Below, in pieces: positions 10,854 to 40,411 of a stretch of 56,666 nucleotides of DNA. This stretch comes from Deltaproteobacteria bacterium (GTDB lineage Bacteria; Bdellovibrionota; UBA1018; UBA923): positions 1-56,666 of the forward strand of contig JACQAW010000342.1 of assembly GCA_016194725.1 (NCBI GenBank), given 5' to 3'. The number at the start of each line of letters is the position of its first letter. Position 1 is the first letter of the stretch. The notes under the pieces are model-generated. The model did not search any database. It was not told the DNA's origin and worked only from the letters and a program-made list of their open reading frames with translations. Position numbers and translations under genes: made by a program.

Positions 10854-10861
10854 ACCTGGTC

Positions 10862-16774: not shown

Positions 16775-16847
16775 GGTTGCACCCGATAGCACAGTCGGCA
16801 GCATCTGCCTATCCAGCGGGGGCTGGGCGGTTACGAAGAGTATAGAG

Positions 16848-20889: not shown

Positions 20890-20991
20890 GTGCGCGGTAC
20901 TTAAAATAATAGCTTTTTTGTCAAGATTTCAATGGAACTAATCCCCGACTCCGGTTAGAAGGCCCCCGAGTAGCATTAAGGGGATTGGTTC

Positions 20992-23473: not shown

Positions 23474-23531
23474 GCGGCCATCATAACAACGCCGGCTCAA
23501 ATTGAAACCGCATTCACCCGATAAGTAGGCC

Positions 23532-25924: not shown

Positions 25925-25927
25925 GCC

Positions 25928-26668: not shown

Positions 26669-26722
26669 GGCAGGCAGCTCATACCCTAAATCCTGCTTGA
26701 ATGCTGGCGAACTTTGGGCGCT

Positions 26723-27013
26723 TTATGCGCGTGCGGCAGCGGTGCTGCGCCCAGAGCTCTTGCGCGTGGTTTTTTTGCCTGAAGTTTTGCGGCTATAGCC
26801 CGCGGCGGCGGCGGCAGCCGTGGTGAATTCGGCAAGATAGGCCTCGGCCCGGCGGGTAAAGGCCGCTCTCTGCCTGCTGGCATCGGCCTTGGCGTCTTTG
26901 AAAGCTTTGGTCGCGGCCTTGGTGGTTTTACGCACTTCAGACGTGGCTTTCTTTTTGAGCGTTTTGGCGAACTTCTCAAACCGGGCCGTGTACTTGTTCG
27001 TGAATTTGGACAT
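26723..27013 (-). CDS. Small Lys/Ala-rich basic protein (histone-H1-like or phasin-like composition), hypothetical
   Basis: A strong AGGAGG SD lies 7 nt upstream of the ATG. The 96-aa product is highly basic and low in complexity. Confidence 0.5.
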   Translation of the reverse strand: MSKFTNKYTARFEKFAKTLKKKATSEVRKTTKAATKAFKDAKADASRQRAAFTRRAEAYLAEFTTAAAAAAGYSRKTSGKKTTRKSSGRSTAAARA

Positions 27014-27098
27014 AAATAAATCCTCCTAGCGTATCGCTCTTAACGTTATACGTGGGCGACAAGACCTAGTTCAAGTATTAACTAGTACTTATTAGTAT

Positions 27099-28853
27099 TT
27101 AGTAGGATTCACCGGCAAAGTTGACCCGGTGGTATTTAATGAACGTGCCCAGAAACGCGTCGTCGGTAAAGGCATGGTTTTGGACCCAGGGCTGGGTGAG
27201 CTGGTTGTCAATACGGGTCAGCAGTGGCACATAGGGCAGGTCTTCATCCATGATCTGCTGAAAGCGGTGAATCTTGGCCATTCGCGGTTTCCCGTTCGAA
27301 AGTGCTGCAATCTCGTCACCCAGGCGGTCTACCTCGGGGTTTTTGTACCCCGCCGTATTGCCACCCACCCCGATGGACTGCGACACGGCCCGGCCCAGCG
27401 AGTCGTCGGCATCGGGAAAGGAGGTGATGAAGCCCAGCGTGCTCACCCCGAATTTCATCAGATTCAAGCGCTGCACCAGCACGGGAAACGTGAGGGCCTC
27501 AAGCTCGAGCGGGATTCCAGCTTCTCGCAGCTGCTGGGCCACGAGCTCGAAGAACTGGCGCTGCTCACTTTCGCTGGTTACCGAGAAGTTCAGCGCGGGC
27601 AACCCCTTGCCCTCGGCAAAGCCGGCCTTGGCCAGCAGCGCTTTGCTCAGCGAAAGATTTCGCCTGCCCCAGCGGCTCTTGAAGCCCGGGTCAAAGCCGT
27701 ACATGTTCGAGGCGATGATGGACTCGAGCTGCACCGCCTGTCCTGAAAAAAGCCGTTCGATGATTTTGGGAATGTCGAGGGCCAGGGCGAACGCCTGGCG
27801 CAGCTCTTTTTTCCGGCCCCACACCGCATCGAGCATGTTGAAGATGAACACGCGCGCCTCTTTGTGCGGCTCGCGTTCGAGGTGCAGACCGCGCGCCGCG
27901 ATGTCGGCCACCAGACCGCCTTTGGCATCGAGCACCACCGGAATATTGTCGCGAGTCAGCGTGGTCATGTCCAGCTGGCCCGCCATGAACTTGAGCCAGC
28001 GGGGCTGAGCCTCGGGCAGAATTTCAAAGACGACCTTGTCCACGAACGGCAGCGCGTGGTTGGCATCGGCCAGCAGCCCCCGCTTGCGGCTATCGGCATT
28101 GCCATCGGCGGGGTACAGGCGATGGTGGTAGTTCGGGTTTTTTACGCCCACGATTTTGGAATGCAGCTCGACCTCGCGCGCTAAAAACGGGCCCGTGCCC
28201 ACGGGGTGCGTGGCAAACTTGTCGCCGTAAAATTCCACGCACTCGCGCGCGATGATCGAGGTGCGGCTGTCGGTCAGCTCATCTGCCAGGCGCGGATGCG
28301 GGCGAGTGAGCCTGAGCTCGACCGAGTAGAGGCCAGTGGTGCGCACCCCTGAAATCGTGGCGGCCTTGCCCGCGTAAAAGTCGTCGATGCCCTCGATGAT
28401 GTGCTCGAACGTGTCGAAGTACGGCGAGTGAAGCCCGCGCGTGGCCATGCGCTCGAACATGTAAACCACGTCGGCCGAGGTCATCTCGCGGCCCTTGCCG
28501 TGGGTGGCGGCAAAGCAGGGGTCGTCGTGAAAAAAAACTTTCTTGCGCAGCTGTACCGTGAAGCGCTTGAAGTCGGCACTCGTGGTCGGCAGCTTTTCGG
28601 CCAGCCCCGGCGTCAGCTGATAAGGGCGCTTGAGGTAATGGTATTCGAAAAGCGTTTCGTAAAAAAGCTGAGTGGCCTGCCGGCTGTACAGCTCGCCCGC
28701 GGCCGTGGGGTCAAGCGTGGTGAGCTTCGCCGTCAGGGCAACCCGAAACTCATTGTGCTCGGCTACCATTGGAAGACTTGGCGCCGCGTGCAGGGCTACG
28801 AGTGGCATTAGAGCGAGCAGCGCCAGCAGTGCCATATTTCTTCCGGGATTCAA
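27099..28853 (-). CDS. ABC transporter substrate-binding protein, family 5 (peptide/nickel type)
   Basis: Signal peptide present. The length and motifs (LTTLDP, YSRQATQLFYETL, NPNYHH) are typical of OppA/DppA-like SBPs. Confidence 0.75.
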   Translation of the reverse strand: MNPGRNMALLALLALMPLVALHAAPSLPMVAEHNEFRVALTAKLTTLDPTAAGELYSRQATQLFYETLFEYHYLKRPYQLTPGLAEKLPTTSADFKRFTVQLRKKVFFHDDPCFAATHGKGREMTSADVVYMFERMATRGLHSPYFDTFEHIIEGIDDFYAGKAATISGVRTTGLYSVELRLTRPHPRLADELTDSRTSIIARECVEFYGDKFATHPVGTGPFLAREVELHSKIVGVKNPNYHHRLYPADGNADSRKRGLLADANHALPFVDKVVFEILPEAQPRWLKFMAGQLDMTTLTRDNIPVVLDAKGGLVADIAARGLHLEREPHKEARVFIFNMLDAVWGRKKELRQAFALALDIPKIIERLFSGQAVQLESIIASNMYGFDPGFKSRWGRRNLSLSKALLAKAGFAEGKGLPALNFSVTSESEQRQFFELVAQQLREAGIPLELEALTFPVLVQRLNLMKFGVSTLGFITSFPDADDSLGRAVSQSIGVGGNTAGYKNPEVDRLGDEIAALSNGKPRMAKIHRFQQIMDEDLPYVPLLTRIDNQLTQPWVQNHAFTDDAFLGTFIKYHRVNFAGESY

Positions 28854-28858
28854 CGCGA

Positions 28859-29263
28859 TTAGGCGTCCTTGCCTATGGTCAGCTTGCCCGCGCCATTGCC
28901 ATAAACGAGAAGCAGACCACCCATGATGGCCAGGTTTTTGAGCACCGAAACGACCTGCTCCTGACTGGCCACGTTCAGCCCGCTGGTGAAGGCCGCCTTG
29001 AAATGAAAGATATAGGTAACCGGAATCATGAAGGCAAACAGGATCAAAGCCCCCAGGCGAGCCCGAAACCCCGACGCCAGGCTAAGCCCGCAGCCCAGCT
29101 CGATGAGCACCGCCGCATAAAGAAAAAAAGGCGCGGCCGGCATGCCGGCCGCCGACATATGAGAAACCGTGCTTTCATAATTCCCAATCTTTGAGATGCC
29201 CGAAAGTATGAAAATCAGCGCTAACAGCAGCCTGCCTAAAAGTGAGCTCAAAGTCTGGGCCAT
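28859..29263 (-). CDS. DoxX family membrane protein
   Basis: LGRLLLALIFILSGISKI... with 4 TM helices matches the DoxX pattern. Confidence 0.75.
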   Translation of the reverse strand: MAQTLSSLLGRLLLALIFILSGISKIGNYESTVSHMSAAGMPAAPFFLYAAVLIELGCGLSLASGFRARLGALILFAFMIPVTYIFHFKAAFTSGLNVASQEQVVSVLKNLAIMGGLLLVYGNGAGKLTIGKDA

Positions 29264-29403
29264 GCGTTGGGTCCCCCCTGTTGTGCGATATCATTCGATG
29301 CGTTGCTTCCAGTCTAACAGGACAAGGTGTAATTGAAAATACCGCAAGACATCATAAGCCGGGGCCGTTATAAATAGGGCCTACCTTCGATCTCATCTCA
29401 AGT

Positions 29404-29489
29404 GCCGGGGTGGCGGAATTGGTAGACGCACAGGACTTAAAATCCTGGGCCTGGAAACGGGCGTATGAGTTCGATTCTCATCCTCGGCA
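29404..29489 (+). tRNA. tRNA-Leu (anticodon UAA), class II with long variable arm; CCA encoded at 29490-29492
   Basis: Acceptor stem GCCGGGG/CCTCGGC, anticodon stem-loop CAGGA-CTTAAAA-TCCTG, variable arm GGCCTGGAAACGGGC, and T-arm ATGAG-TTCGATT-CTCAT. Confidence 0.9.
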
Positions 29490-29556
29490 CCATTTTATGA
29501 GTTCTATTTTTGGTCTAAAAACGTAAACGAACGTAATTAAACAATGAGTTTTCCCT
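29467..29556 (+). repeat. Direct repeat copy 1 (attL-like): tRNA T-arm and 3' end plus about 65 nt downstream
   Basis: Aligns with 37402-37496. The core ATGAGTTCTATTTTTGGTCTAAAAA differs from the second copy by one T. Confidence 0.7.
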
Positions 29557-29767
29557 GAGTTTAGGCCCGTTCCAGCACCTCTTCCTGTCTCGAATTGGCT
29601 CGACCCGGCCTGAGTTGGCTAAAAGCTGGCTAAGGTTTGGCTAAGAGTTCGAGAGCCCAAAGTCACCCAAAACCAATGCGCGAAACACCACCACTCACGG
29701 GATAGTCCCGCGTGCCAGGTGCCAGTGGTGTTTCGCGCCAAAGGGCTTTGTCCAACAGGAGGCACAT

Positions 29768-29938
29768 ATGGATATCGGAAAACTCATTGGCAAGCTCATC
29801 ACGGTTGCTCTCGTTCTTGCAACGGCGGGAACGCTCTACGAAGTCACGATCGCGCTCAAAGAGGCCGCGCTCGATACGCAGAGGCATGGAATGGTGTCGT
29901 TGGGCGCGTTCAATCGACGGCTCGAACGAGGGCGTTAA
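29768..29938 (+). CDS. Small (56 aa) single-TM protein, below the ORF-track length cut-off
   Basis: AGGAGG lies 5 nt upstream of the ATG. The product is MDIGKLIGKLITVALVLATAGTLYEVTIALKEAALDTQRHGMVSLGAFNRRLERGR. A perfect 12-bp terminator hairpin follows immediately. Confidence 0.55.
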   Translation: MDIGKLIGKLITVALVLATAGTLYEVTIALKEAALDTQRHGMVSLGAFNRRLERGR

Positions 29939-29945
29939 TTTTAAA

Positions 29946-29979
29946 CGTGTGCGGCGGAGAACTCTCCCCGCCGCACACG
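29946..29979 (+). terminator. Intrinsic terminator
   Basis: CGTGTGCGGCGG-loop-CCGCCGCACACG forms a 12-bp perfect stem, followed by TTGTTTACTTATT. Confidence 0.7.
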
Positions 29980-30030
29980 TTGTTTACTTATTGAAGTCGG
30001 TTAGCTAATATATTTTTTCAAAATATGAAA

Positions 30031-30058
30031 AGCCGACAGCCGACAGCCGACAGCCGAC
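30031..30058. repeat. Heptanucleotide tandem repeat (AGCCGAC)x4
   Basis: Four perfect copies plus a partial GCC. It sits between an AT-rich promoter-like stretch (TTAGCT-17-TATGAA) and the GGAG SD of the ORF at 30080. Confidence 0.9.
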
Positions 30059-30079
30059 GCCAAGCCCATTGGAGACTCT

Positions 30080-30322
30080 ATGGCTCGGCTAGAGGATGCA
30101 ATCGGGAAGCTCTATCAGTGGCAATACGGCATTCGTGATCCGAACGACTTCACTTTTCAGCTTTTCACCCTGCTCCAGATGGCCAGTCCCAGCGAGTTTG
30201 AAAAACTTGCAACCGCATACCCTGACGAAGCGAAAGCCTTCAAGCTTTGGTACCAGTCTAGTGATCCGGTAGAATTTTTTAAAAATCACGGCGTTTGGAA
30301 AGGACCGCGCTTCAAGGATTGA
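30080..30322 (+). CDS. Hypothetical 80-aa protein
   Basis: GGAG SD upstream and an ordinary-looking protein composition. No family recognised. Confidence 0.45.
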   Translation: MARLEDAIGKLYQWQYGIRDPNDFTFQLFTLLQMASPSEFEKLATAYPDEAKAFKLWYQSSDPVEFFKNHGVWKGPRFKD

Positions 30323-30346
30323 GCCCCGCGCGCTCTATTTGTGACG

Positions 30347-30372
30347 AAAAGACGCAGTTACGTCTATTTTTT
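30347..30372. terminator. Hairpin AGACG-CAGTTA-CGTCT with A-run and T-run flanks (bidirectional terminator candidate)
   Basis: It lies 25 nt after the stop of the 80-aa ORF and is followed by a T6 run. Confidence 0.5.
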
Positions 30373-30433
30373 CAAACCACTGCATTCGCAGGAATATCAA
30401 CAACTTATATTTAAAACGCCTCAACAAAATCCG

Positions 30434-30462
30434 GAAACAGACGCAAATACGTCTGTTTTTTT
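30434..30462. terminator. Second, related hairpin ACAGACG-CAAATA-CGTCTGT plus a T-run
   Basis: 7-bp stem followed by T7. It shares the GACGCA..TACGTC core with the first hairpin. Confidence 0.5.
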
Positions 30463-30628
30463 CTTTTTCGCCCCTCTTCCCCTCTATGTAAATATCTGAT
30501 AATCCCTTTTGCGTTCAATCCTTTAGCCCTCATCTTGGGGAGCCGCGAACTTTTGGCTCAAGGGTTGCTGATGGTCTGTCCCGAATCGCGGAGCGATTTG
30601 GAATTGCCGTCAGTGAGAGAGGAACAAG

Positions 30629-31198
30629 ATGAGGGAGTCCATTGCAGAAATTTTCGCCATCGCAAAAAGCAGTAGGTTCACGGCCTACGAGCAGGGCGTG
30701 CTCGTGCATCTTCCAACTGGCGAAAACGTCACCGTAAAAATCGAACGCACCACCAAATCGCTGCGCCCCGTGGGCCTTCGTTTCTCGACGTTTGCATTCG
30801 TGACGGAAGTAAGCGCGGGCGCTGCTCGCGGTTTTGGTTACGGAGAAGCACCCACCCAACTTATCGCCCTCCAAAAAAGTATCGCCGAGGGTGTCGAGCG
30901 CGCTATTTATAAGGCACTCAAGGGCACCCCCCACGGAACGCCGAACTCGAATGGATGGGCGGCCCATATCAACCGGGAGCGCGCCGTCGAGTCTGCGGTT
31001 GACGAGCTTGCCGAGAGAGATGCAGTGCTCGTGCATTGGCTTCGCAAGATTCCAATGAAAGAAATTACGCCCGCGACCTGGCCGATCCGCATCGTGCGTT
31101 GGACGCAGACGGAACTTTTCCTCTCTCCCAAGTTCAATCAACTGCGCGTAGCCGACGCCGAGTTCTCGCGCGAGCTTACTGAGTTTGTCACCGATTGA
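30629..31198 (+). pseudogene. YcaO-like domain gene, 3'-truncated (tail is antisense of an AbiEii stub)
   Basis: ARGFGYGEAPTQLIALQKSIAEGVERA and SNGWAAHINRERAVESAVDELAERDAVLVHWL resemble the two N-terminal YcaO motifs (GxG...A..E..ER and sxGxAaH...A...ExxERDa..xW). At 189 aa it is less than half a normal YcaO. Confidence 0.35.
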
Positions 31199-31225
31199 TC
31201 GCGCCTGATTCTTGAGTTTGGTCAT
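31091..31225 (-). pseudogene. AbiEii/AbiGii-type toxin gene remnant (first ~45 codons only)
   Basis: Its ATG overlaps the AbiEi stop (ATGA). MTKLKNQARSIGDKLSKLARELGVGYAQLIELGREEKFRL resembles AbiEii N-termini. Downstream the frame becomes Arg-rich antisense of the plus-strand ORF, and no nucleotidyltransferase motifs are seen. Confidence 0.4.
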
Positions 31226-31854
31226 GCCGCTTGTCCTTCTGGCGCGATGGCCTCCCAATGACGCTCGACGAATTTCTCGAGCCCGAGCGCTTTTGCTTGA
31301 GCATGAATCTTCTGAAGCGTCGTTCGTTTCTCGGCAACTGCCGTTCGCGTCGCACGAAGCGCGACCCTTAGCCCCATTTTTGAGGCATACCGAAAAGTCT
31401 CAACAAGAGTTCGTTCAAGATTGGTGATTCGGTAAGTCCCATGGTCTTCAACCCCCTTGCGAGGATTAGTTTTTGTACGAATACAGCGGTACCGATGATC
31501 GTTGGCTTTTACGCTATAGGGAGTCATCATCCAGACGCGCTGCGGGACTTGCTCAATAAGCCCGTGATGAAAAAGGGCTGTCATGCCGCCGACTACCGAA
31601 TCAGGGCCAAGCTTCTCGCAGGCAACCACGTAATCTTGTTCCTCGGGCTTGATCGTCGAGTCGGGGTGCATGTACAGGCCGGCTCCCAGTCGCACGACCT
31701 GATTTGCCGCGACAAGCCGCGAAAGTGTAGGTTGGGAGATGCCAAGCCGCCTTGCATCGCCAATGCGAAATACGCCCATCTTCTTGAGCTGAGGAAGAAG
31801 TTTTGCGACTCTTAGAGGGCGGCCTCGTTTGGGCTTCGATCGACTCTTTTTCAT
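31222..31854 (-). CDS. Type IV toxin-antitoxin system AbiEi-family antitoxin
   Basis: N-terminal wHTH (FRIGDARRLGISQPTLSRLVAANQVVRLGAGLY) and a C-terminal AbiEi_4-like region (GGMTALFHHGL...). Confidence 0.7.
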   Translation of the reverse strand: MKKSRSKPKRGRPLRVAKLLPQLKKMGVFRIGDARRLGISQPTLSRLVAANQVVRLGAGLYMHPDSTIKPEEQDYVVACEKLGPDSVVGGMTALFHHGLIEQVPQRVWMMTPYSVKANDHRYRCIRTKTNPRKGVEDHGTYRITNLERTLVETFRYASKMGLRVALRATRTAVAEKRTTLQKIHAQAKALGLEKFVERHWEAIAPEGQAA

Positions 31855-31939
31855 CCAGCTATTCCTTCAAATAATTATGAATATAAGTAACCAAAAAGTC
31901 AAGTTTTTGTACTTTTCTATTCATAATAATAGAGAAACC

Positions 31940-32814
31940 CTAAAAATGAAAAAGTGCCGAGGACTCCTCCTCGGCACCCGTTCTTTGACAAACAATGACT
32001 GATCCGAAAAAGGCCACGATTCCGTTCCTCGCGGAGACGACTGTCGAAAACCTCCTAACGCCATCAGTTATTATCGAATGAGCACGCTTCGGGAGTTTAA
32101 AGAACTGCTGAATCGCGTTCTTCCCGCCCCAGAAGTAGATCGGCGCCCCGCGTGGATTTTCGAGCACCTCGTCGATCATTGATACTCCGAACGAGGCATC
32201 ATCATTGGATCTTGAGCGCATTCCTTCACCCCACTTTTCGTGAAGCCGGTTGCCGAAAGATCTTGAATTTACGAAGTACCAGACCATCGAAATCTCGGAT
32301 CTTGCGTGGTAGGCACGAAAGATTTTCTCGTAGCGACTGAGTTTCTTGGGATGAAGCTCGCACTCCACTGCAATCGCCCGCACCTTTCCGGTGTGGGTCG
32401 TTGCCGAGAAGATCGCGTCCGGTATCAGGGATCTCGTCTCGTCGCCGCTTCTTCGATGCGAATAAAGACGTCGCCTCATGCTCCGATCCAGCACCCAGTT
32501 TTCGTCAAGACCCAAGCTTTCCAAGGCCATGCGGATATCGGTCAACTGCACGTCGTGATCGAGGTTTAGGCGATTGATGCGAGGTAGCCTTTCCCCTTCA
32601 CCTGCCTCTTCTTCGCCTTGAACGCCCAGGCACCAGGAACAGCTCCCTGGATGCGCCTGATCCATTGCCCCTGCTCAAGTTTTCTTAGGCGCCGAAGGAG
32701 TGTCGTTTTGCGTATACCCGGGAAGGCCGTTTTCTCTACCTGGCGTGTTGAAAGTACGCCGTAGCGATCAAGCCGGTCCAAAAGCTCGCGGTCGCGAGTC
32801 GTTAATGTCGTCAT
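31940..32814 (-). pseudogene. Replication-relaxation (Replic_Relax) family gene, frameshifted
   Basis: The 82-aa ORF (32566..32814, LTTRDRELLDRLDRYGVLSTRQV...LLRRLRKLEQGQWIRR) matches the N-terminal wHTH. The 241-aa ORF (31940..32665, LDHDVQLTD...LIPDAIF...AVECELHPKKLSRYEKIF) matches the C-terminal nuclease-like core. The two frames overlap at 32566-32665. Confidence 0.55.
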
Positions 32815-32816
32815 GG

Positions 32817-33380
32817 TTAGTACCTCCTTTCCATTTGATTAAGCGCTCGCTCGATCGCAGATTGTCCCTTGATGGCAGAGTCAGCGGGCTTTGGTTTTGG
32901 CGGTTTGGGAGTAGGTTCTTCTTCATTTGGGTCAGGCAACCGCGATTCTAGTTCATCGATTTTCATGTGGAGCATCGAGACCTCATCGGCGAACGGGCGC
33001 ACTGCCTCTGAGAACTCCCAGCGCCTGGCAAAAAGCTCCCTCGTCTTGATTTCGAGCTCGGTTAGACGGTCCTCGATGACCTTGCGGTATTCATCTTCTT
33101 TCTTTTTCTTCTTCTGGAAATACTCGTTCACCTTGACTGTGACGATCATGACGGCCCAGATTAAGAGCCCGCCGCCCAGGACGTAAGGAATAGCCTGCCA
33201 CACCGCCGATACGGCGCTACAGATCAAATCCCAAAGCCCTGGCGGCTGCGGACCACGGAGAACAGCATGGGCGGTTTCAGGATAAAAGATCGGAATGCAT
33301 TGAATGACGGAATAGACAATAGCCACCGCAAGGGCAGCCAGGAGTAGGATGTCTCCCATAGGGTAAACGTCTCCCTTCAC
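32817..33380 (-). CDS. Membrane protein (2-3 TM helices) with cytoplasmic coiled-coil and Pro/Lys-rich tail, hypothetical
   Basis: ORF 32817..33380. The ATG at 33359 after AAGGGAGA is the more likely start. The stop lies 2 nt before the Replic_Relax start. Confidence 0.55.
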   Translation of the reverse strand: MKGDVYPMGDILLLAALAVAIVYSVIQCIPIFYPETAHAVLRGPQPPGLWDLICSAVSAVWQAIPYVLGGGLLIWAVMIVTVKVNEYFQKKKKKEDEYRKVIEDRLTELEIKTRELFARRWEFSEAVRPFADEVSMLHMKIDELESRLPDPNEEEPTPKPPKPKPADSAIKGQSAIERALNQMERRY

Positions 33381-33660
33381 CGGATTTTCAGGAGAAAACC
33401 GGGGTGGATGGTTTTTAGATTTCAGAACCAGCCTGGAAAACGCCTAGAAGTGCGAACACGCAATGTATGTGCATTCGCACATGTTTGATATAACGGTGAC
33501 CGGCCAAGCGCAATAATTTTATTTCTTTTTAATTTCAAATGGTTGTGAATTCTGGGCCGTTTTCAACCTGCCGAACGCGCCTTCCAGTCGATTCACGAAG
33601 GAATTCCGCGCCCTCGATCTGAAGGAACCATTAACAATTCGCGCGGCTTGTTTTGATTCT

Positions 33661-36327
33661 CTACTCATCGATAGGTGTCTTTTTGAGAAGGGCCGAGTGA
33701 ACCGACACTTCGATCTCCTCGCGAAACCGGGTACAGGCGGCGCTGGTCCGAAATACGGCACGTAATTTTCCGAGCAGGCTCCGCCATTGAGGGGAATGGA
33801 CGGAATCCGCGCCCGTGTCCTCGTAACGAGACTCGATCAAGACAGCCATATTCCGGAACGACTCGTCGGACTCAAGCCCGCGTGCGAACACTGTGAGCCC
33901 TTCATTTTGGATACGCGCACTCAGGGCCTCGCTGGCGGCGATCGCATCCGAATGCCTACCGGGTTCTCTTAATTTCAGGTCTATCAGGAGGTTGAGAGCT
34001 TGAATCGCCCCGAGACCTCCTCCCTCGGGCTGCTTGCTCATAGTGGGATTGTCGGGCGGACGCGGGTTGACAAACCTGGGTGGAGGCCGTGACCATGGGT
34101 CATTCCCCACGATCGGATTCAGGAGCTGGACTTCTTTGGCGGACGGCTGTCCGGCCTTGAGCAGGTTGCCGGCTTCGGCAATCTTAATTTCCGGGTGTTG
34201 AAGAAGCGCATTGACCAAGACCTCGGTCGTAGACTCCACGACAGGGGCGCCATCCTTCAGGAGTGCCCCGAACCGTTCGAAGACGGCAAACACGTCCAGC
34301 AAACCTCTTCCGCCGTCGGGCCCTTGATTGAGCGCTGCAAACAAGGGGATCGGGTCCTTCTTGGTCGAGGCGCTGAGACGCTCGCGGCTTTCGAACAGAG
34401 TCCGGATTTCCGGCAGCCGCTCCGCTTCGCGGCGCTCGATTTTATTCAAAGCATTCCAGCTTATGCCGCCTTCAAGCGTGGTCTCAACTACACCGACTGC
34501 TGCAAGAGCATAGCCCAGCCGACTCAAAGCCTTGAGTGACTCCCGATCCCTGAGATTTTCTGGGTCGTCGAACGCCCTGAGCGCCCCCGAGCGCCGGACC
34601 TCATTGACCGCGCCAGTGAGATCCGCTCGTGCCAGTTCATTCAGAAATCGCCTTCGCTCCTTCGGATCCGGGATTCGATCGAAGATTTTTCGATCCGCCG
34701 CTTTAAGACTCACACCGTCCCCTGTGAAAAGGACCCGAGCAACGTCTTTTTCCCACAAGGGGATGCTTGGGTGCCTCAGCCACTCATCGCTGCCTTGGAG
34801 CGCGGGCGCGGAATTATTTTGGGTGCCAGGTTGGGCCGAGACGCTCCCGGTGGTCATGCTGCCGGCGAAAAGCTTGGCGAGATCTGGAACATCGTAGTCC
34901 TTCGCGTTTTCCACCCGCTGAGTCGCGTAGAAAGGCTCCTCGCCGGACTCTGGGGGCAGGTCGCCTTTTGGATCGTAAGCATGCTCCGACAGAGGAGGAC
35001 GGCCTTCCTGTCCTCCGCGCGCCTTAACCTGACTCGCGTATCTGGTCAGGGCTTTCCGTTCATTTTCGCTCGGAGGCGCATCCGCTTTCTTGTAGAGCAG
35101 GCTCTTGTCATCGACCTCGCGGTTGCCGTGGTTCCATGCATCGTCATTGAGCACGAGCGAGGCGTCGTAAAGCTCGGATTTGATCCCTCTGACCCTCATG
35201 TTGTGGCGAAGATCCAGGACCGAGTTGTCGCGCGTATCATAGAGCACGGCCTGCTGGTGATCCCCGAAAGCTTGCACTTTGAGCTTGAGGTAGTCAGGGA
35301 GATGATTCCCCACGACGGCCGCGACGATCGCGATATTGAGTTTTGCCCCGCCTTCGCAGTCGATACCGTCTCCTTGAAGCGCGTCGATGATTCTCTTGGT
35401 CCGCCGATCGGGTGGCAAAGGGATAAGAGAGGCGTACCGGTGAGTGAAGTCCTGGTTGACCTGAGCCATCATTCGCTGGATTCGGATCTCCACGGGCTCC
35501 CCGGGATTCTGATTGAAGAGGGCTCGGTACTGCCGCAGCTGATGCTCATAAAGCCGAAAATACTCCTCGTCCTTTTCAGGATTGCGATCCCTTGCGGCGC
35601 GGTCGCGCAGTTCGGAATGAATAAGGAGCTCGCCGGCGGCCGCGAGATCCGAGAGCTTAGATCCATCCACGCCGGATCTGATTAGCGCGGCTGCCTTGCC
35701 ACTGATCTGAGTCTCGACCCGGGAGAGAACAGCTCGATCCATGAGTGGGCGCGGGGCTTTTTTTCCGGCCCCCTCTTTTTTTGCGCCGTCTTTCGCTCCG
35801 TCGGCGGTGGAGTTTTCGCCGTCGGGTAGGCTGGCTACGGCGCCTTGGATTTCGTTGAATTCCTGAGCTTGATCCGTAGTCATGACCTCCAATCGCGGGC
35901 GTTCGCACGCCACCCGATACTCCGAAGGCACCATCGCAAAACCGCGACAGACTGCGGGCTCTGTCGTGAAACCGCCCCTGCGGATCTGCCGATAGTTCTC
36001 GAGCCATCCCCGGTTGCGGTCTTCGATTGCGACGATTTTCTCGCATTCATCCCGCGAAAGCGGGAAATGCAACTTCGGAACCATGGCTCGTGTGGTCTTC
36101 AACTGCAGGTCCAGCGTCCGCTCAAGCGCTCTCGTGCAGCCCCCCAGCGAGTCAACCCACGGGAATCGAGCCTGCCTGAGCTCAGCGAACTCCGACTCGA
36201 TCGTGGAAAGCTCAGTCGCCAGCGCCGCCTGGTCGGAAAAAAGGCATGAGTCCGCGCGAACACCGCTGACGGATGCCAGAAAAAGCGCAAAACTGAGTGC
36301 TGGCAGGACGAGGAGGTCGCATCGCAT
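33661..36327 (-). CDS. Large (888 aa) secreted hypothetical protein with a possible Cys-His-Asp (transglutaminase/papain-like) core
   Basis: ORF 33661..36399. The ATG at 36327 gives the signal peptide MRCDLLVLPALSFALFLASVSGVRA. GIDCEGGAKLNIAIV...FGDHQQAVLYDTRDNSVLDL is arranged like a C...H...D triad. The rest is unrecognised. Confidence 0.6.
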   Translation of the reverse strand: MRCDLLVLPALSFALFLASVSGVRADSCLFSDQAALATELSTIESEFAELRQARFPWVDSLGGCTRALERTLDLQLKTTRAMVPKLHFPLSRDECEKIVAIEDRNRGWLENYRQIRRGGFTTEPAVCRGFAMVPSEYRVACERPRLEVMTTDQAQEFNEIQGAVASLPDGENSTADGAKDGAKKEGAGKKAPRPLMDRAVLSRVETQISGKAAALIRSGVDGSKLSDLAAAGELLIHSELRDRAARDRNPEKDEEYFRLYEHQLRQYRALFNQNPGEPVEIRIQRMMAQVNQDFTHRYASLIPLPPDRRTKRIIDALQGDGIDCEGGAKLNIAIVAAVVGNHLPDYLKLKVQAFGDHQQAVLYDTRDNSVLDLRHNMRVRGIKSELYDASLVLNDDAWNHGNREVDDKSLLYKKADAPPSENERKALTRYASQVKARGGQEGRPPLSEHAYDPKGDLPPESGEEPFYATQRVENAKDYDVPDLAKLFAGSMTTGSVSAQPGTQNNSAPALQGSDEWLRHPSIPLWEKDVARVLFTGDGVSLKAADRKIFDRIPDPKERRRFLNELARADLTGAVNEVRRSGALRAFDDPENLRDRESLKALSRLGYALAAVGVVETTLEGGISWNALNKIERREAERLPEIRTLFESRERLSASTKKDPIPLFAALNQGPDGGRGLLDVFAVFERFGALLKDGAPVVESTTEVLVNALLQHPEIKIAEAGNLLKAGQPSAKEVQLLNPIVGNDPWSRPPPRFVNPRPPDNPTMSKQPEGGGLGAIQALNLLIDLKLREPGRHSDAIAASEALSARIQNEGLTVFARGLESDESFRNMAVLIESRYEDTGADSVHSPQWRSLLGKLRAVFRTSAACTRFREEIEVSVHSALLKKTPIDE

Positions 36328-36526
36328 CTCTACTCGTATCGGAAGAACAGAAGGGAACCTGGAACCTAAGCGGGCATCACTGCGGAGCGTCATTTCCACG
36401 TTTAGTTCTTAGGCCCTAAAATACTAGCTTTCGACGAGAGAATCGCCCATTGAAGTGAGCGGAAACCGGGCGATACTTCGAATTCACGGTGTTTCAAAGC
36501 AACGCGCGGGATAACGGCGCTTTCGG

Positions 36527-36823
36527 TCAGGATGCTTTTTCCAAAATGATCCTCGTTCGGAGCTTGAAGGGCTTCAAGAGTTGGTCGAGGGTTTCCGGCT
36601 TAAGGCTTCTACGGCCTTTGACAAAGGCGACAAGATTGGACGACGGTACGCCGGTAAGTGCCGCGAATTCCTTCACGCCCATGATCTGAATGGTCTGCCG
36701 AAGCGCGTCTTCCGCGCTCAAGCCGTCATCGCCCACCATGAGCGATGCAATGAACTCTCGGGCGTAGGCGGGGCGTCGCAGCCGCTGACTCAGTTCTTCG
36801 TTGTAACTAGCCGTTCTTCGCAC
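36527..36823 (-). CDS. higA: HigA-family addiction-module antidote protein (HTH)
   Basis: The GTG at 36823 follows a GGAGGG SD located inside the toxin 3' end. ...AEDALRQTIQIMGVKEFAALTGVPSSNLVAFVKGRRSLKPETLDQLLKPFKLR fits the TIGR02684-like antidote pattern. Confidence 0.7.
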   Translation of the reverse strand: MRRTASYNEELSQRLRRPAYAREFIASLMVGDDGLSAEDALRQTIQIMGVKEFAALTGVPSSNLVAFVKGRRSLKPETLDQLLKPFKLRTRIILEKAS

Positions 36824-37148
36824 GGTAATCCCTCCAATATTCGATTGCTTGCTGGATATCCTGATTCTGCCGCCTCTTCGTACCACCGAGAAGAAGCACG
36901 ATGATCTGGCCGCCAAACTGCCCGAAATAGACTCGATATCCCGGCCCATAGTCGATCACGATCTCGAAGACGCCCTGGCCTACCGGCTTGACGTTCTTCG
37001 TGGCTCCGCGCGCTGCCCGAATCACATAGGCATCGATCTTGGCCTGCGTGGTCCAATCCAGTTCGTGGAGCCATTCGTTAAAAGGCTCTATTCCCGCCGC
37101 TGTCTGATATTTTTTGATCTCTCTCACGGGTAATTCCAAAATTATCAA
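36807..37148 (-). CDS. higB: RelE/ParE-superfamily (HigB-like) addiction-module killer protein
   Basis: IEPFNEWLHELD...KIDAYVIRAARG...VKPVGQGVFEIVIDYGPGYRVYFGQFGGQIIVLLLGGTKRRQNQDIQQAIEYW is the classic TIGR02683-type pattern. The start is uncertain (TTG 37148 or GTG 37127). Confidence 0.75.
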   Translation of the reverse strand: MIILELPVREIKKYQTAAGIEPFNEWLHELDWTTQAKIDAYVIRAARGATKNVKPVGQGVFEIVIDYGPGYRVYFGQFGGQIIVLLLGGTKRRQNQDIQQAIEYWRDYRAKNG

Positions 37149-37401
37149 ATTTTATAACTTTAGGCAAGCGCGGATTTCATTTCAAAAATACCTGATTTTA
37201 CAGGCGATCTGTGCCGGCTGCCTACTTCGTTCGTGCCTTGGCTTTGAATCTAACAAACGCTTCGCAGGCCCCGATCACGTCAGCGACCCCTTGGGTTCCG
37301 CCGTAACGCGCTACCAAGCCGCGCAGCTCTATTTGGTTTAGGCCCTTCGGCTCTGGGTAAGCCTCGAATTCTGCGACCAACACTGCGTCATGGCTCCAAG
37401 G

Positions 37402-37496
37402 GAGTTCGTCTACTTTCCAGCTCTCCGCACCATCTAATGAGTTCTATTTTGGTCTAAAAAAAAGTAAGCAAACGTAAACAAACAACGAGTTTCCAG
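37402..37496 (+). repeat. Direct repeat copy 2 (attR-like) with a degraded tRNA 3' end
   Basis: GAGTTCG...CTCTCCGCACCA compares with tRNA GAGTTCGATTCTCATCCTCGGCACCA. It is followed by ATGAGTTCTATTTTGGTCTAAAAA...GTAAGCAAACGTAAACAAACAACGAGTTTCC. Confidence 0.7.
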
Positions 37497-37551
37497 CATG
37501 GGCGGCCCAGATCGGCCGTGCTACAATGACTAAGAACGGGGGGAAGGTTTC

Positions 37552-37998
37552 ATGACCAAATTTATTCTTCTGGCTTTTGTTTTGTTAGTTACCTCGGTGG
37601 CACATGCCGATGCGACAGCAAATTCCACGGATGTAAATCGAGCAGCGGGAGGCGTTGCCGTCCGTCAAAATGGATCACAGCCAGGAGTTGACAGCTCAAT
37701 TTCAGTTCAGGCCGACGACGTCGTGATGTTTAACGCCAAGACCAAGATTATCCATTGTTCCAGCTGTAGATGGGCAAAGGCGTGCACAGTAAATTGCGTG
37801 ACCGGCAAATACTCGGAAGCGGTACAACAGGGTGGCCGTCCCTGCAAAGTTTGCAAACTGCGATGCAACACGGATAAAGGCAAAAAAAACACTCCTCTGG
37901 AGAAGCAGAGCGAACGTACCGATCCAAAACAGATCGAAGCACCAGGCGATCACATTAATCCGCCAGGAGCGGCTCCTGATTCCATAGAGATACATTGA
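37552..37998 (+). CDS. Secreted protein with an Ada-like Cys4 zinc-binding motif
   Basis: Signal peptide present. KIIHCSSCRWAKACTVNCVTGKYSEAVQQGGRPCKVC matches the YH..C...(n)...A...G.RPC..C motif. Confidence 0.45.
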   Translation: MTKFILLAFVLLVTSVAHADATANSTDVNRAAGGVAVRQNGSQPGVDSSISVQADDVVMFNAKTKIIHCSSCRWAKACTVNCVTGKYSEAVQQGGRPCKVCKLRCNTDKGKKNTPLEKQSERTDPKQIEAPGDHINPPGAAPDSIEIH

Positions 37999-38262
37999 TT
38001 GCGCTATGATCGACGATCAAACCGCTGATGCCCAGCACGTTTGGTGGAGCCAAATTGCGTCCGCCGAAATACATTCAAAAAGCCACATAGTCCCATCGAC
38101 ATTTTTTCGCAACAGGCTTTGGGCCTGAGCAAGAGCAGCGAATGGGTTTTAATGACGCCATACGGCATCCTGAATGGGTGGCGTCGCCAATAAGGTGCCA
38201 TTTTTATTCGTGCAACCAGCCACTACCTTGCCTTAAGCTAAGGCCTAACCTAAGGGGGGTTC

Positions 38263-38538
38263 ATGAAAATATTTAAACTCAGTCTCGCGGCAATCTCGAT
38301 TTGTTCATTCTCAGTTCTGGGCGCAACCGCCCATGCGAAAGTTTCGCAGGGCTGGGCTGTTTGCAAAAAGGATATCAAGAAATTTTGCAAGAAAGGCGTC
38401 GCTGACGACCAGGCTGCATTCCAATGTCTCGAGAGCCATGAAAAGCAGCTTTCGAAATCCTGCTTCGCATTTAATGAGGCTTATGAAAAAGAGCACGAAA
38501 AGTCTGAGAGTTCAGAAAAGGCCGGTACTCACGAGTAA
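38263..38538 (+). CDS. Small secreted cysteine-rich-repeat protein
   Basis: Signal peptide present. The CKKDIKKFCKKGV...FQCLESHEKQLSKSC spacing fits a C..D...C....C L...LS..C repeat. A GGGGG SD lies upstream. Confidence 0.45.
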   Translation: MKIFKLSLAAISICSFSVLGATAHAKVSQGWAVCKKDIKKFCKKGVADDQAAFQCLESHEKQLSKSCFAFNEAYEKEHEKSESSEKAGTHE

Positions 38539-38586
38539 GGCCGGCCACCTCTTCCAGGGAACTCCGGGCGCAGGTAAAATGGCCGC

Positions 38587-39573
38587 CTAACGCAAGATGC
38601 GTTCACAAAGCGGCAGTGGCTGCGGGTCCACTCCCACGGGAGCCTTCATGAAGGAGGCTTTCAGGAAATTCCAGACCCGCCGTGAAAGTGTGAGGCCAAG
38701 CAGCTTGCGCACGCTTTTGCCCTGGAGCAGAGTTCCGATTTCCTTGGTCGTGCCGTCGGGCAGGGTAATCCTGGTTACGACTTCGAGGTCTTCCTCGTAT
38801 TTTTTTGAGATGCGCTCGCGCCACGAGCGGTCTTCGGCGAGTGTTGCGAGGTGCCGCGCCCAGGCAGCGGCGACGTCGTCGGGCATGACCTTTTTTTCCA
38901 GTATATCTTTGAGCGTCGTTTCCCAGGTCACCTCGTGCTCGATTTCGCCGAACTTGAGGCGCAGGCTGAGCCGGGTGTCTGCGAGGTCGGGCACTTCGAT
39001 GGGCGCGCCGAACTTTTCGACCCAGTCGCCGGTCGTGTCGAGCGGCTCTTCGGACTCGAGAAAGATGTAGCCGGTGTTGCGCTGGCGAGCCAGGAACATG
39101 CCATCGCGTTCGACGTATCCGGAGGTCAGCATGCTGAAGCGCGAAATGCCGGGAATCGAGGCAATCTGCTTGAGAAGCTTCCAGCGGGCATACGCCTGCC
39201 TGACTTTAAGGTCGGCGAAGGTGTTTCGCAGGACCATGGCGGGAAACTTCACGGCCTCGTAGCCGACAAACGAAAGAATGGCCAGGGGCTCCTGCGTGCG
39301 CCCGTAAAGCGCTGCCGTATAACCAAATGCCATCGCGCCGACGATAAGCGGGTGCACCACTCGGGCAACTTTTCCGAGCTGGACGTCACTGGTTATGGGC
39401 TTCGACAAGAGGTAATAGTGCGCCTTCTTCTCGGCGCCAAAGCAGAGCGTCGAAAGCGCGAGACCCAGAATTACGACTGTGGTTGCGAGCCGAGCGTAAC
39501 ACGTCGAAACCATATTCTTCTTTATCGACGGATTGCCGGGGCTCCACCAGAGATATGAAATCGAGGCGGTCAA
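38587..39573 (-). CDS. Hypothetical membrane-anchored protein
   Basis: 328-aa ORF with 2-3 N-terminal hydrophobic helices. The start is uncertain (39573 or ATG 39513). No family recognised. Confidence 0.45.
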   Translation of the reverse strand: MTASISYLWWSPGNPSIKKNMVSTCYARLATTVVILGLALSTLCFGAEKKAHYYLLSKPITSDVQLGKVARVVHPLIVGAMAFGYTAALYGRTQEPLAILSFVGYEAVKFPAMVLRNTFADLKVRQAYARWKLLKQIASIPGISRFSMLTSGYVERDGMFLARQRNTGYIFLESEEPLDTTGDWVEKFGAPIEVPDLADTRLSLRLKFGEIEHEVTWETTLKDILEKKVMPDDVAAAWARHLATLAEDRSWRERISKKYEEDLEVVTRITLPDGTTKEIGTLLQGKSVRKLLGLTLSRRVWNFLKASFMKAPVGVDPQPLPLCERILR

Positions 39574-39592
39574 TTTTGCCGGGTATGGCTTA

Positions 39593-40411
39593 TTAAATTG
39601 GAAAGGCGCCGCCAGGGGTTCGGCTCTTATCGGTGACGTCGAGCACGAAGCTGGTTACGCCCATGAGCGTTCCGTCAGGCGTGCGCACGGGATAGGAGTT
39701 GAATATCTGATGAAACGGCCCAAACACCAGCTCGTAGCCGAGCAGCGGCTTGCCGGTCTTTATTACGAGATCAACGACCTCTTCGACAGCATCGGCCATT
39801 TGCGGGGGCACCATTTCACGGACTTTTTTTCCTGGATAAAGCGCCGGATCGCGGCCCGAGGGCCGGGTCAGCGCACGGTTTACTTTTATGTAACGGCAGT
39901 CCAGGTCGACGACCACGAAACCAAACGGCGCGGAGTCCAGCGCCTCATCAAGAACCATTCTTCCGAACCGCTGTTTCTGATAGCGTCTGGCATCGCGAAT
40001 AAGAATAGTCGCGCGCTCGGCAAGCCCCCGCGCGAGCAGTACATCGTCGTCAGAGTAACGAGTCCCACCGGCTTCGCGCCCAAGCAGCAGCTCACCGATC
40101 TCAGACCCAACTGCCGCCAATGGCACGACGAGATAATTTTCCAGCCCGTGGTTGCCCTCGGAATGCAGCGACTCCGCGATTTTGAACAGCTCGTTGTTTC
40201 GAGACCCATCGAAGTGGGCGCAGGAGACCACGTCCAGCTGTTGGTCATCATCGGAGTTCAACCGTACGATGCAGTAGTCGCCAACCCGGTTGGCCAGCTC
40301 CCGCGCCACGGCTTCTACGGCCTGGTCGTAGTTGAGCGCAACCTCGGCAAAACTGCGCGAAGCCTCGGCGAGATTGCGCCAATAGGAAAGACGTTTTGGG
40401 TCTGAATTCAT
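39593..40411 (-). CDS. GAF-like plus PAS domain sensor protein without a recognisable output domain
   Basis: The N-half is GAF-like (YLVVPLAAVGSEIGELLLGR). The C-half is PAS-like (APFGFVVVDLDCRYIKVNRAL...PVRTPDGTLMGVTSFVLDVTDK). Confidence 0.55.
   Translation of the reverse strand: MNSDPKRLSYWRNLAEASRSFAEVALNYDQAVEAVARELANRVGDYCIVRLNSDDDQQLDVVSCAHFDGSRNNELFKIAESLHSEGNHGLENYLVVPLAAVGSEIGELLLGREAGGTRYSDDDVLLARGLAERATILIRDARRYQKQRFGRMVLDEALDSAPFGFVVVDLDCRYIKVNRALTRPSGRDPALYPGKKVREMVPPQMADAVEEVVDLVIKTGKPLLGYELVFGPFHQIFNSYPVRTPDGTLMGVTSFVLDVTDKSRTPGGAFPI

Follow-up and report, generated by a model that had tools for sequence, protein, structure and literature searches.

The ~8-kb interval 29493-37421 of a contig from an uncultured Bdellovibrionota/Oligoflexia-like metagenome-assembled genome (MAG) is likely what is left, after decay, of an integrative and probably mobilizable element of the cis-mobilizable (CIME) type, which would have used the 3' end of a tRNA-Leu(UAA) gene as its integration target. 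Positions refer to the window, i.e., the whole stretch of 56,666 nucleotides that was analysed. Worn-out remnants of mobile elements are common in bacterial genomes, and the island is an ordinary one that belongs to an already known kind of element and changes no concept. It does mark tRNA-Leu(UAA) as a hotspot of repeated insertion in an uncultured lineage about which little is known, and it offers a clean case of an integrated element decaying to an att-flanked cargo block that a toxin-antitoxin pair would hold in place. Because integrase-based predictors would miss such an island, it should also be useful for MAG annotation and in benchmarks of island prediction. An initial annotation, made from the letters and their open reading frames (ORFs), had described an old, recombinase-less tRNA element with decayed cargo. 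The repeats, the synteny break at the tRNA edge and the broken genes bear out this description; insertion by an integrase, the order of decay and present immobility are what we infer from them.

A direct repeat of the tRNA-Leu(UAA) 3' end

The features that delimit the interval are as follows.

29404-29492, plus strand: intact tRNA-Leu(UAA), called as tRNA-Leu(taa) by ARAGORN and matched by Rfam RF00005 (59.1 bits)
29467-29556, plus strand: proximal direct repeat (attL-like), comprising T-arm, acceptor 3' end, CCA and 64 nt beyond
37402-37496, plus strand: distal copy of the repeat (attR-like), in which the tRNA T-arm and acceptor end are degraded
37497-38560, plus strand: low-GC tail past the distal repeat (GC 49.8%, GC3 0.46-0.50)

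Global alignment of the two repeat copies gave 75 identical positions in 98 columns (86% of the ungapped columns). The local alignment score was 79, compared with a mean of 15.2 (sd 2.4) and a maximum of 28 for 2000 dinucleotide-preserving shuffles. The tRNA-end pair was the highest-ranking direct repeat (family D1) between 28.5 and 39 kb, and a scan of both strands of the full contig revealed exactly these two copies. The initial annotation had noted a repeat in direct orientation that runs from the tRNA T-arm into downstream sequence, as well as a second copy with a degraded tRNA 3' end. Both observations were confirmed by the computed alignment, the distal copy retaining GAGTTCG...CTCCGCACCA of the T-arm and acceptor end; the accompanying estimate of 58 matches over ~70 downstream positions gave way to 52 of 66 columns 3' of the CCA. 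Exact identity between the copies extends over at most 14 nt, the indels fall in the T-loop/acceptor region, and the bulk of the repeat is non-tRNA sequence reaching ~64 nt past the tRNA.

Since the contig derives from a MAG, we considered whether the repeat might have arisen by chance or through chimeric assembly of the metagenome. This is extremely improbable, as the score lies ~26 sd above the shuffles and the left flank and parts of the right one match relatives at similar nucleotide identity (71-79% for the relative L001 on the left, 70-76% for L052 on the right). Moreover, the repeat would be unable to cause a misjoin, because its 14-nt exact match is shorter than any assembler k-mer.

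Relatives, base composition and the right boundary

The nearest relative, L001, was collinear with the window from 16160 to 29492. Its synteny ended at the last base of the tRNA, 29492, and was followed by unrelated sequence without any island gene up to the end of the L001 contig, 1.1 kb past the tRNA. In L001, the T-loop/acceptor end of its own tRNA recurred perfectly over 15 nt at a distance of 253 nt downstream, and this independent tRNA-end repeat marked tRNA-Leu(UAA) as a site of recurrent insertion in the lineage. On the right, L052 was syntenic with the window only from 39620 and had in common only a PAS gene (39.6-40.4 kb) and a metallophosphoesterase gene (42.5-44.8 kb), the nearest homologue of the latter (65% identical) lying on the L052 contig. 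The contig ends of L001 and L052 did not overlap. When genome contigs were scanned with a single query, the adjacent gene for a substrate-binding protein (SBP), no relative emerged; with an alignment of 16 SBP sequences as the query, 50 loci were found, and the order SBP-DoxX-tRNA-Leu was kept only on the L001/L002 contig among the 23 closest Bdellovibrionota-like loci, which were scanned for tRNAs. An empty site joining tRNA-Leu directly to the gene at 37552, as anticipated by the initial annotation, did not turn up among the relatives found via either flank.

GC content was 54.4% in the island, 58.6% in the left flank and 59.4% in the right flank, and GC3 ranged from 0.54 to 0.66 in island genes and from 0.69 to 0.78 in flanking genes. 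The enclosed DNA had been called visibly more AT-rich, and the enrichment is real; however, it amounts to only 4-5 points and excepts the gene for a 912-aa protein (GC 0.589, near flank-like), so that this wording was overstated. The GC3 minimum (0.46-0.50) falls beyond the repeats, at 37552-38538. Two genes of the low-GC tail (37552-37998 and 38263-38538) encode small Cys-rich proteins with hydrophobic N-termini. The tail, which had no counterpart in L001 or L052, may be a remnant that accreted earlier. Since GC3 stays atypical as far as ~38560, some 1 kb beyond the distal repeat, the island's right boundary is ambiguous, and this anomaly together with the onset of L052 synteny only at 39620 means that the distal repeat may not be the true outer edge. 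Viewed as a tRNA-associated genomic island, the interval adjoins the 3' end of an intact tRNA, has foreign-type genes beginning <300 nt away and lies between repeats that take in the tRNA 3' end; its composition differs modestly from the core, with the right edge of the anomaly (~38560) off the repeat, and it lacks an integrase.

The same boundary data could be read differently, with the tRNA 3' end and its downstream sequence having been duplicated locally and 29.5-39.6 kb being a fast-evolving, lineage-specific region instead of an att-bounded insertion. Low GC3 and loss of synteny reaching past the distal repeat would fit such a duplication, as would the failure to find an empty site and the mostly non-tRNA makeup of the repeat. 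On the other hand, the repeat unit starts inside the tRNA, the variable region begins, to the base, where the tRNA ends, L001 independently shows a repeat of the tRNA end at this site, and the interval is full of mobile-element-type genes and gene wrecks. We therefore judged a local duplication to be quite improbable.

Cargo genes and recombination functions

Between the repeats, we distinguished the following features.

29615-29644, plus strand: three YTGGCTAA motifs, exactly 11 bp apart, ~125-150 bp inside the island
29768-29938, plus strand: ORF for a 56-aa hydrophobic peptide, with an AGGAGG ribosome-binding site
30031-30058, plus strand: perfect tandem array of four AGCCGAC units (TRF score 56, 100% matches), directly 5' of the 80-aa ORF
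30080-30322, plus strand: 80-aa ORF, its sole match being phage family phrog_15317 of unknown function (E 3e-5)
30629-31198, plus strand: truncated SagD/YcaO-like gene, with the N-terminal ~160-189 aa left of a domain of ~325-377 positions
31100-31225 (left limit approximate), minus strand: putative AbiEii 5' stub, its ATG overlapping the AbiEi stop (ATGA)
31222-31854, minus strand: intact orphan AbiEi, the AbiE antitoxin/regulator (PF13338, PF09407; PADLOC AbiEi E 1e-31, full length)
31940-32814, minus strand: frameshifted MobC/Replic_Relax gene with an HTH and a PD-(D/E)XK-type domain, frameshift near 32620-32640
31954-31978, no strand assigned: bidirectional terminator hairpin, one arm equalling the tRNA 3' end at 14/15 positions
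32817-33380, minus strand: 187-aa ORF, hydrophobic at the N-terminus and charged (K/E-rich) over its C-terminal half
33661-36399, minus strand: gene for the 912-aa cargo protein, which seems to start with a signal sequence and has a putative transglutaminase-like Cys-His core in its centre
36527-36949, minus strand: HigA-like HTH antitoxin ORF (HTH_3 E 0.0055; phrog_4268 transcriptional repressor E 0.004)
36807-37148, minus strand: intact HigB-like toxin of the RelE/ParE family (PF05973, TIGR02683, phrog_3445)

Three island genes are demonstrably or probably broken. The truncated YcaO-like gene and the frameshifted Replic_Relax gene of the initial annotation were both recovered, and AbiEi proved to be full length. 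The YcaO fragment matched PF02624 (E 1.4e-7, profile positions 111-158) and TIGR03604 (E 1.8e-9) and was also detected in the six-frame scan. The N-terminal piece of the Replic_Relax gene alone gave E 0.0035; with the frames joined, the PF13814 score rose to 27.4 bits, exceeding the gathering score (GA, 25.3) and covering positions 2-170 of the 191 in the profile, and NCBIfam MobC_subf matched at E 5e-8. The third gene, which had been called an AbiEii stub, runs convergent to the YcaO fragment and abuts it. It matched no HMM (Pfam; PADLOC even at E<=10), and its putative identity derives from its position and the ATGA overlap with AbiEi. A full-length, two-domain AbiEi followed by an ORF with this typical overlap resembles the AbiEi/AbiEii systems (type IV toxin-antitoxin/abortive infection), but since the AbiEii nucleotidyltransferase is undetectable here, the AbiE system is incomplete.

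The HigBA pair stood in part. The toxin scored 100.2 bits against TIGR02683, above the curated cutoff of 62.85, and matched the toxin family phrog_3445 at E 1e-23. The gene order is that of HigBA type II modules (TIGR02683, "upstream of HI1419"), with the RelE/ParE toxin gene first and a small HTH gene second; unlike in these modules, the antitoxin ORF matched HTH models weakly, below every curated family cutoff. The true start of this ORF is probably near 36810, past the toxin stop, and toxin and HTH partner together are probably an addiction module that stabilises the block.

Neither the 56-aa ORF (searches including PADLOC and PHROGs) nor the 187-aa ORF (Pfam, PADLOC, NCBIfam and PHROGs) matched any family; downstream of the former, inverted repeat I5 (17 nt, 94% complementary) makes up a strong hairpin at 29944-29981. 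Within the terminator hairpin, 31964-31978 resembles an att site; were it a third one, internal to the island, the island would consist of two elements in tandem. We rejected this as unproven, the score of 25-26 reaching only the top ~1% of the contig background.

In a six-frame Pfam scan of 29400-38701 (E<=0.1), no integrase, resolvase or transposase was detected, nor did PADLOC, NCBIfam or PHROGs reveal a recombinase among the island ORFs. The large ORFs of the remaining contig contained none either. The initial annotation, which had found no tyrosine or serine recombinase in any frame, was correct in this respect. A relaxase or Rep initiator was likewise not recognised in the island (Pfam and six-frame Pfam; for the relaxase also NCBIfam). 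The core pattern of the repeat had 0 matches in metagenome contigs and 0 in viral contigs, and the tRNA 3' 26-mer had 0 in viral contigs. The Replic_Relax protein gave no tblastn match in 72,556 plasmids and none in metagenome contigs. Against plasmids, the sole match of the island DNA was the toxin gene, which weakly resembled toxin genes of Sphingomonas plasmids; there was no match in 50,697 phage records. PHROGs searches of the island ORFs returned only the toxin, the weak repressor, a weak match of AbiEi to phrog_8715 (E 0.0099) and the one family of unknown function. The island does not qualify as a prophage remnant, having no phage structural, replication or lysis genes. A related element carrying an integrase was not found in the metagenome, viral, plasmid or phage searches.

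The three YTGGCTAA motifs had no further matches on the whole contig, and by their spacing and position may form a protein-binding array, either arm-type or iteron-like. No arm-type sites or equivalent motif cluster were found near the distal repeat.

With iterons in mind, the interval might be an integrated small mobilizable plasmid that bore a fragment homologous to the tRNA-Leu 3' region and entered by a single homologous (Campbell-type) crossover, which would have duplicated this fragment without an integrase ever having been involved. Replic_Relax has been tied to plasmid replication and relaxation (PMC3424549), and a plasmid would accommodate this "replication-relaxation" gene together with two toxin-antitoxin-type modules. 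It would also be in keeping with the iteron-like arrays (AGCCGAC x4 and the phased YTGGCTAA x3), the weak toxin match to Sphingomonas plasmids, and the lack of an integrase or integrase pseudogene, for which there is scant non-coding space. However, neither Rep initiator nor relaxase was recognised, the Replic_Relax protein lacked counterparts in the plasmids searched, and a repeat beginning within a tRNA T-arm is characteristic of att sites. The 14-nt exact match is also far too short for a RecA-mediated crossover, so that plasmid integration would likewise require long later divergence. Overall, we consider it unlikely, if somewhat less so than a local duplication.

Retention of both att-like repeats, with the phased candidate binding array adjoining the proximal one, raises the question of whether the element is still mobile, i.e., an integrase-free, att-flanked block of the CIME or satellite type for whose movement an integrase from another part of the genome, or from an incoming element, would be responsible. 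Mobilisation in cis and in trans is documented for CIMEs (PMC5704250), the cis route being opened when an ICE or IME integrates at one of the att sites. Here, however, the repeats differ at 14-23% of positions, their indels are located precisely where crossover would occur, the 56.7-kb contig is without an integrase and the mobilisation gene is frameshifted, all of which makes continued mobility quite improbable. The same low likelihood attaches to an extended version, in which the YTGGCTAA motifs would be recombinase or accessory sites and the block would spread an undescribed, secreted transglutaminase-like Cys-His family among uncultured Bdellovibrionota-like bacteria.

Proposed element decay, related systems and the 912-aa protein

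We favour a decayed tRNA-targeting element over these alternatives. The repeats are non-random, start inside the tRNA and are confined to two copies. The island adjoins an intact tRNA, has lower GC3 than its flanks, contains broken genes and is free of recombinases. AbiEi, the RelE/ParE toxin and MobC/Replic_Relax are cargo typical of mobile elements, the YTGGCTAA motifs lie at a distance inside the island where arm-type sites would be expected, collinearity with L001 breaks off at the tRNA, and the tRNA-end repeat of L001 shows repeated use of the site. Several observations count against an element: no genome with an empty site was found, and the anomaly in composition and synteny continues past the distal repeat. 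A repeat that is mostly non-tRNA, 77-86% identical and interrupted by T-loop indels is unusual for simple attL/attR sites. In addition, no integrase-bearing relative of the element was found, and the 912-aa gene has near host-like GC.

According to the proposed course of events, site-specific recombination once placed the element into the 3' end of tRNA-Leu(UAA). The element would have brought its own T-arm, acceptor end and downstream sequence, and because it carried this copy of the tRNA end, insertion would have rebuilt a working tRNA and left the second copy distally (attL-like and attR-like, respectively). The recombination module (integrase and excisionase) and any relaxase would later have been deleted outright. 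One deletion may have taken the 3' portions of both the AbiEii and the YcaO-like gene, which converge, a frameshift would have arisen in the MobC/Replic_Relax accessory gene, and the repeat copies would have drifted to their present ~77-86% identity. Left over would be the HigB-like toxin with its HTH partner, the orphan AbiEi regulator, a few small genes and the large secreted cargo protein.

CIMEs were first described in Streptococcus thermophilus. Like these cis-mobilizable elements, as defined in a review of integrative mobilizable elements (IMEs) (PMC5704250), the island has attL- and attR-type repeats at the 3' end of its target gene, is devoid of integration and transfer genes, and resembles the product of a deletion in an ICE or IME. 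Both att-like repeats are retained, though diverged; recombinase and relaxase are missing and the MobC-like gene is frameshifted, their former presence being presumed. Other remnants may lie in tandem with a CIME, and such a neighbour could be represented by the low-GC tail at 37.5-38.6 kb. Unlike in CIMEs, the att copies have diverged with indels, which makes att function doubtful; furthermore, the host is an uncultured Bdellovibrionota/Oligoflexia-like MAG instead of a Firmicute, and no partner ICE or IME is known.

The island also shares features with tRNA islands that have P4-type tyrosine integrases, namely insertion at a tRNA 3' end that regenerates the tRNA, a repeat starting from the T-arm, atypical composition, and toxin-antitoxin and defence-type cargo. 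In contrast to those islands, it has no integrase gene or pseudogene, and its repeat extends ~64 nt past the tRNA and is mostly non-tRNA. The sublocation of att sites within tRNA genes was reportedly treated by Williams in 2002 (Nucleic Acids Res 30:866). With IMEs the island has in common its small size (8 kb), the tRNA target and a MobC/Replic_Relax gene of the relaxosome-accessory type. IMEs possess their own integrase and mobilisation function, whereas here the integrase is absent, no relaxase was recognised and the MobC-like gene is frameshifted, and the island is thus not an IME.

The most interesting by-product of the analysis is the 912-aa protein, which appears to be secreted (the signal sequence was judged by eye) and belongs to a very rare family of about ten known members with a probable transglutaminase-like core. 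A search of 5.8e9 proteins returned only the protein itself; ten remote relatives, none with a Pfam domain, were found among 1.84e9 representatives. C348 and H381 are invariant in the family. A full-length structure model was discarded (pLDDT 54), and a model of the central domain reached pLDDT 78, the remainder being unmodelled. A profile search of PDB sequences gave nothing. Foldseek comparison of the domain model ranked LapG, menin, TGase and PNGase highest (E >= 0.017, TM 0.31-0.44), LapG structures being the best PDB matches. In the predicted fold, the core Cys is positioned at a helix N-terminus and followed by a His-bearing beta-sheet, as in LapG and the bacterial transglutaminase-like cysteine proteinases, and the catalytic core is thus probably transglutaminase-like. 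Unlike LapG, the protein is five times larger, has no sequence match in Pfam or PDB and gave weak Foldseek matches.

Direct repeats at tRNA-Leu(UAA)

The tRNA-Leu(UAA) gene was intact at 29404-29492 according to ARAGORN and Rfam, and a segment that starts in its T-arm and stops 64 nt beyond the CCA end (29467-29556) was repeated in the same orientation at 37402-37496. This pair was the top direct repeat of the region. Global alignment showed identity in 75 of 98 columns (86% of the ungapped columns) and, in the portion 3' of the CCA, in 52 of 66. The local score of 79 compared with 15.2±2.4 (maximum, 28) for 2,000 dinucleotide-preserving shuffles, and a scan of the whole contig on both strands revealed no third copy. 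The tRNA-linked repeats proposed in the initial annotation thus stood out from shuffled controls, in two copies only. Since the distal copy retained GAGTTCG and CTCCGCACCA with extra bases in between, it corresponds to a degraded T-arm and acceptor end. The post-CCA core TATGAGTTCTATT was similar to the T-arm sequence TATGAGTTCGATT, a composite layout common to both copies. Chance similarity or an assembly artefact would be a far-fetched source of the repeats; the two copies share no exact match longer than 14 nt, and relatives match the left flank at a nucleotide identity similar to that of the PAS and metallophosphoesterase genes on the right, both of which speak against an artefact.

Three copies of YTGGCTAA, the only ones on the contig, were located 125 to 150 bp inside the proximal repeat (29615, 29626, and 29637; span 29615-29644, + strand), spaced exactly 11 bp apart. 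The three motifs make a good candidate for a phased array of protein-binding sites, of either the arm or the iteron type, and nothing comparable was found near the distal repeat. A terminator hairpin at 31954-31978 agreed with the tRNA end in 14 of 15 nt. Were this an att site inside the island, the island would be two elements in tandem; the match was statistically indistinguishable from background, however, and this candidate was rejected.

Gene content and probable loss of mobility functions

Features of the island and its right margin
29768-29981 (including terminator), + strand: ORF for a 56-aa hydrophobic peptide with a strong AGGAGG ribosome-binding site, followed by a terminator with a 17-bp stem
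30031-30058, + strand: four perfect tandem copies of AGCCGAC, directly upstream of an 80-aa ORF
30629-31198, + strand: N-terminal half of a SagD/YcaO-like gene (PF02624, E = 1.4e-7; TIGR03604, E = 1.8e-9)
31222-31854, − strand: AbiEi, full length (Pfam; PADLOC, E = 1e-31)
32814-32566 and 32665-31940, − strand: replication-relaxation (Replic_Relax)/MobC gene, one gene in two ORFs, frameshifted near 32620-32640
33661-36399, − strand: 912-aa ORF whose N-terminus looks by eye like a signal sequence
36807-37148, − strand: HigB-like toxin (TIGR02683, 100.2 bits, above the curated cutoff)
37552-38538, + strand: two small genes whose Cys-rich products (148 and 91 aa) each have a hydrophobic N-terminus

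The AbiEi gene, the truncated YcaO-like gene, and the frameshifted Replic_Relax gene were all recovered as initially annotated. When joined, the two ORFs covered positions 2-170 of the 191-position Replic_Relax profile with 27.4 bits, which exceeds its gathering score, and also matched the NCBIfam "MobC family replication-relaxation" model (E = 5e-8). Of the annotated HigBA pair, the toxin was well supported, and its downstream partner gave only weak helix-turn-helix (HTH) matches. The supposed AbiEii stub opened with the ATGA overlap with AbiEi expected of an AbiEii gene, but had no AbiEii match in Pfam or PADLOC, even when its first 60 residues were searched at E ≤ 10. This ORF and the YcaO-like fragment converge on opposite strands; a single deletion of the 3' parts of the two genes would explain both wrecks. 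The 56-aa ORF could encode a small membrane toxin or peptide, and the AGCCGAC repeats could be an operator or iterons.

To search for a recombinase, 29400-38701 was translated in six frames, with stops replaced by X, and scanned against Pfam at E ≤ 0.1. The scan yielded the YcaO fragment, Gp49/HigB, AbiEi, and a weak Cys-rich repeat, but no recombinase, in agreement with the initial annotation. Since the non-coding gaps of the island were all at most about 300 nt, the integrase is absent and not merely pseudogenised. None was found among the large ORFs elsewhere on the contig or in the gene table of the syntenic relative either. We consider it likely that the island derives from an integrative element that targeted the tRNA, then lost the functions for recombination and transfer but kept both att-derived repeats. 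Its anatomy fits the published definition of a cis-mobilizable element (CIME), in which these functions are lost and the att repeats kept (PMC5704250), and it is a decayed genomic island of an ordinary, already known kind. The HigB-type module would plausibly explain the persistence of the block. That a CIME might still be mobilisable in trans appears quite improbable, since the repeats diverged by 14-23%, with indels where crossover would fall, which speaks against present mobility. The same differences would be seen if the att of the incoming element had differed from that of the chromosome from the start.

The Replic_Relax family, in which an HTH is fused to a PD-(D/E)XK domain, has been connected with the replication and relaxation of plasmids (PMC3424549), and the MobC-like pseudogene points to an ancestry of the decayed element among integrative and mobilizable elements or mobilizable plasmids. 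Entry of a plasmid by homologous crossover is an unlikely origin of the block. In PLSDB, the toxin gene was the sole match to the island DNA, and Replic_Relax had no match in plasmids or metagenomes. Island DNA did not match phage records, and a PHROGs scan added no phage-like content to its ORFs. The att core was found in neither JGI metagenome nor IMG/VR contigs, nor the tRNA 3' end in IMG/VR.

Probable insertion site and extent of the island

Homologues of the substrate-binding protein (SBP) encoded left of tRNA-Leu came from Oligoflexia, Bdellovibrionales, and Bacteriovoracaceae MAGs, which places the host among uncultured Bdellovibrionota-like bacteria. In the closest relative, contig L001 (JBBRLF010000086.1, GCA_038231515.1), the SBP was 73% identical, and the contig was collinear with 16160-29492 at 71-79% nucleotide identity, the final aligned base being the tRNA 3' end. 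Its 1.1 kb past the tRNA had no match to the island or to the right flank. Among 22 further tRNA-scanned loci (50 SBP loci in the set), none kept the SBP-tRNA-Leu arrangement. The nearest right-side relative, L052, shared only the PAS (from 39620) and metallophosphoesterase genes, and 37497-39620 was unmatched throughout. Since L001 diverges at the tRNA and L052 is syntenic only from 39620, an empty site was neither shown nor excluded. By comparison with relatives, the variable stretch extended from 29493 to about 39600. A local duplication within a fast-evolving region is a rather improbable source of the repeats.

GC content was 54.4% in the island, compared with 58.6% and 59.4% in the left and right flanks, and GC3 was 0.54-0.66 in island genes versus 0.69-0.78 in flanking genes. 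The AT richness noted initially therefore held for the block as a whole, though to a modest degree, but not for the 912-aa gene, whose GC (0.589) was near the host value. The most atypical composition was found outside the distal repeat, in the gene pair at 37552-38538 (GC3 of 0.46-0.50, the lowest on the contig), which had no counterpart in L001 or L052 and may be an older accreted remnant. The anomaly thus runs from the tRNA to near 38560 instead of 37497, and the right boundary is uncertain. The initial reading of an old tRNA-targeting element that lost mobility remains the best available.

Of the 89 positions of the tRNA gene, 10 differed between the window (29404-29492) and L001 (1093-1181); 9 of these differences lay in the 3' half, in the variable arm and in the T-stem, where the changes were fully compensated (ATGAG/CTCAT versus ACCGG/CCGGT). 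Such differences may reflect replacement of the 3' half by an element-borne copy; ordinary compensatory evolution explains them too. In L001, 15 nt of the tRNA T-loop/acceptor sequence also recurred without mismatch 253 nt downstream (847-861 and 1100-1114), an independent (mini att) scar at the same tRNA site. Between DoxX and SBP, L001 carried a cupredoxin/COX2-like gene (1772-2188) missing from the window (28853-28859). GCA_038231515.1 is labeled "candidate division WWE3 bacterium"; given the collinearity of its contig with the Bdellovibrionota-like window, the label or the MAG binning is probably wrong.

The 912-aa cargo protein

The 912-aa protein had no relatives in a word-indexed search of 5.8 billion proteins; searching 1.84 billion representatives exhaustively with HMMER brought up only ten remote ones, all devoid of Pfam domains. 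Cys348 and His381 were invariant in this family. In an AlphaFold model of residues 225-460 (pLDDT, 78; pTM, 0.78), the Cys starts a helix and the His lies on the following sheet. The best Foldseek matches in the PDB were all transglutaminase-like (LapG, menin, a TGase, PNGase, and Rad4), with weak scores (E of 0.017 and above; TM, 0.31-0.44). Because of this geometry and these fold matches, a secreted protein with a transglutaminase-like cysteine protease core resembling the LapG type is a reasonable but unproven prediction.

To the left of the island, the contig also carried a chaperone-usher type operon at 9900-14080 (− strand), comprising a PapD_N chaperone, an usher, and an SCPU/spore-coat-U-like subunit.
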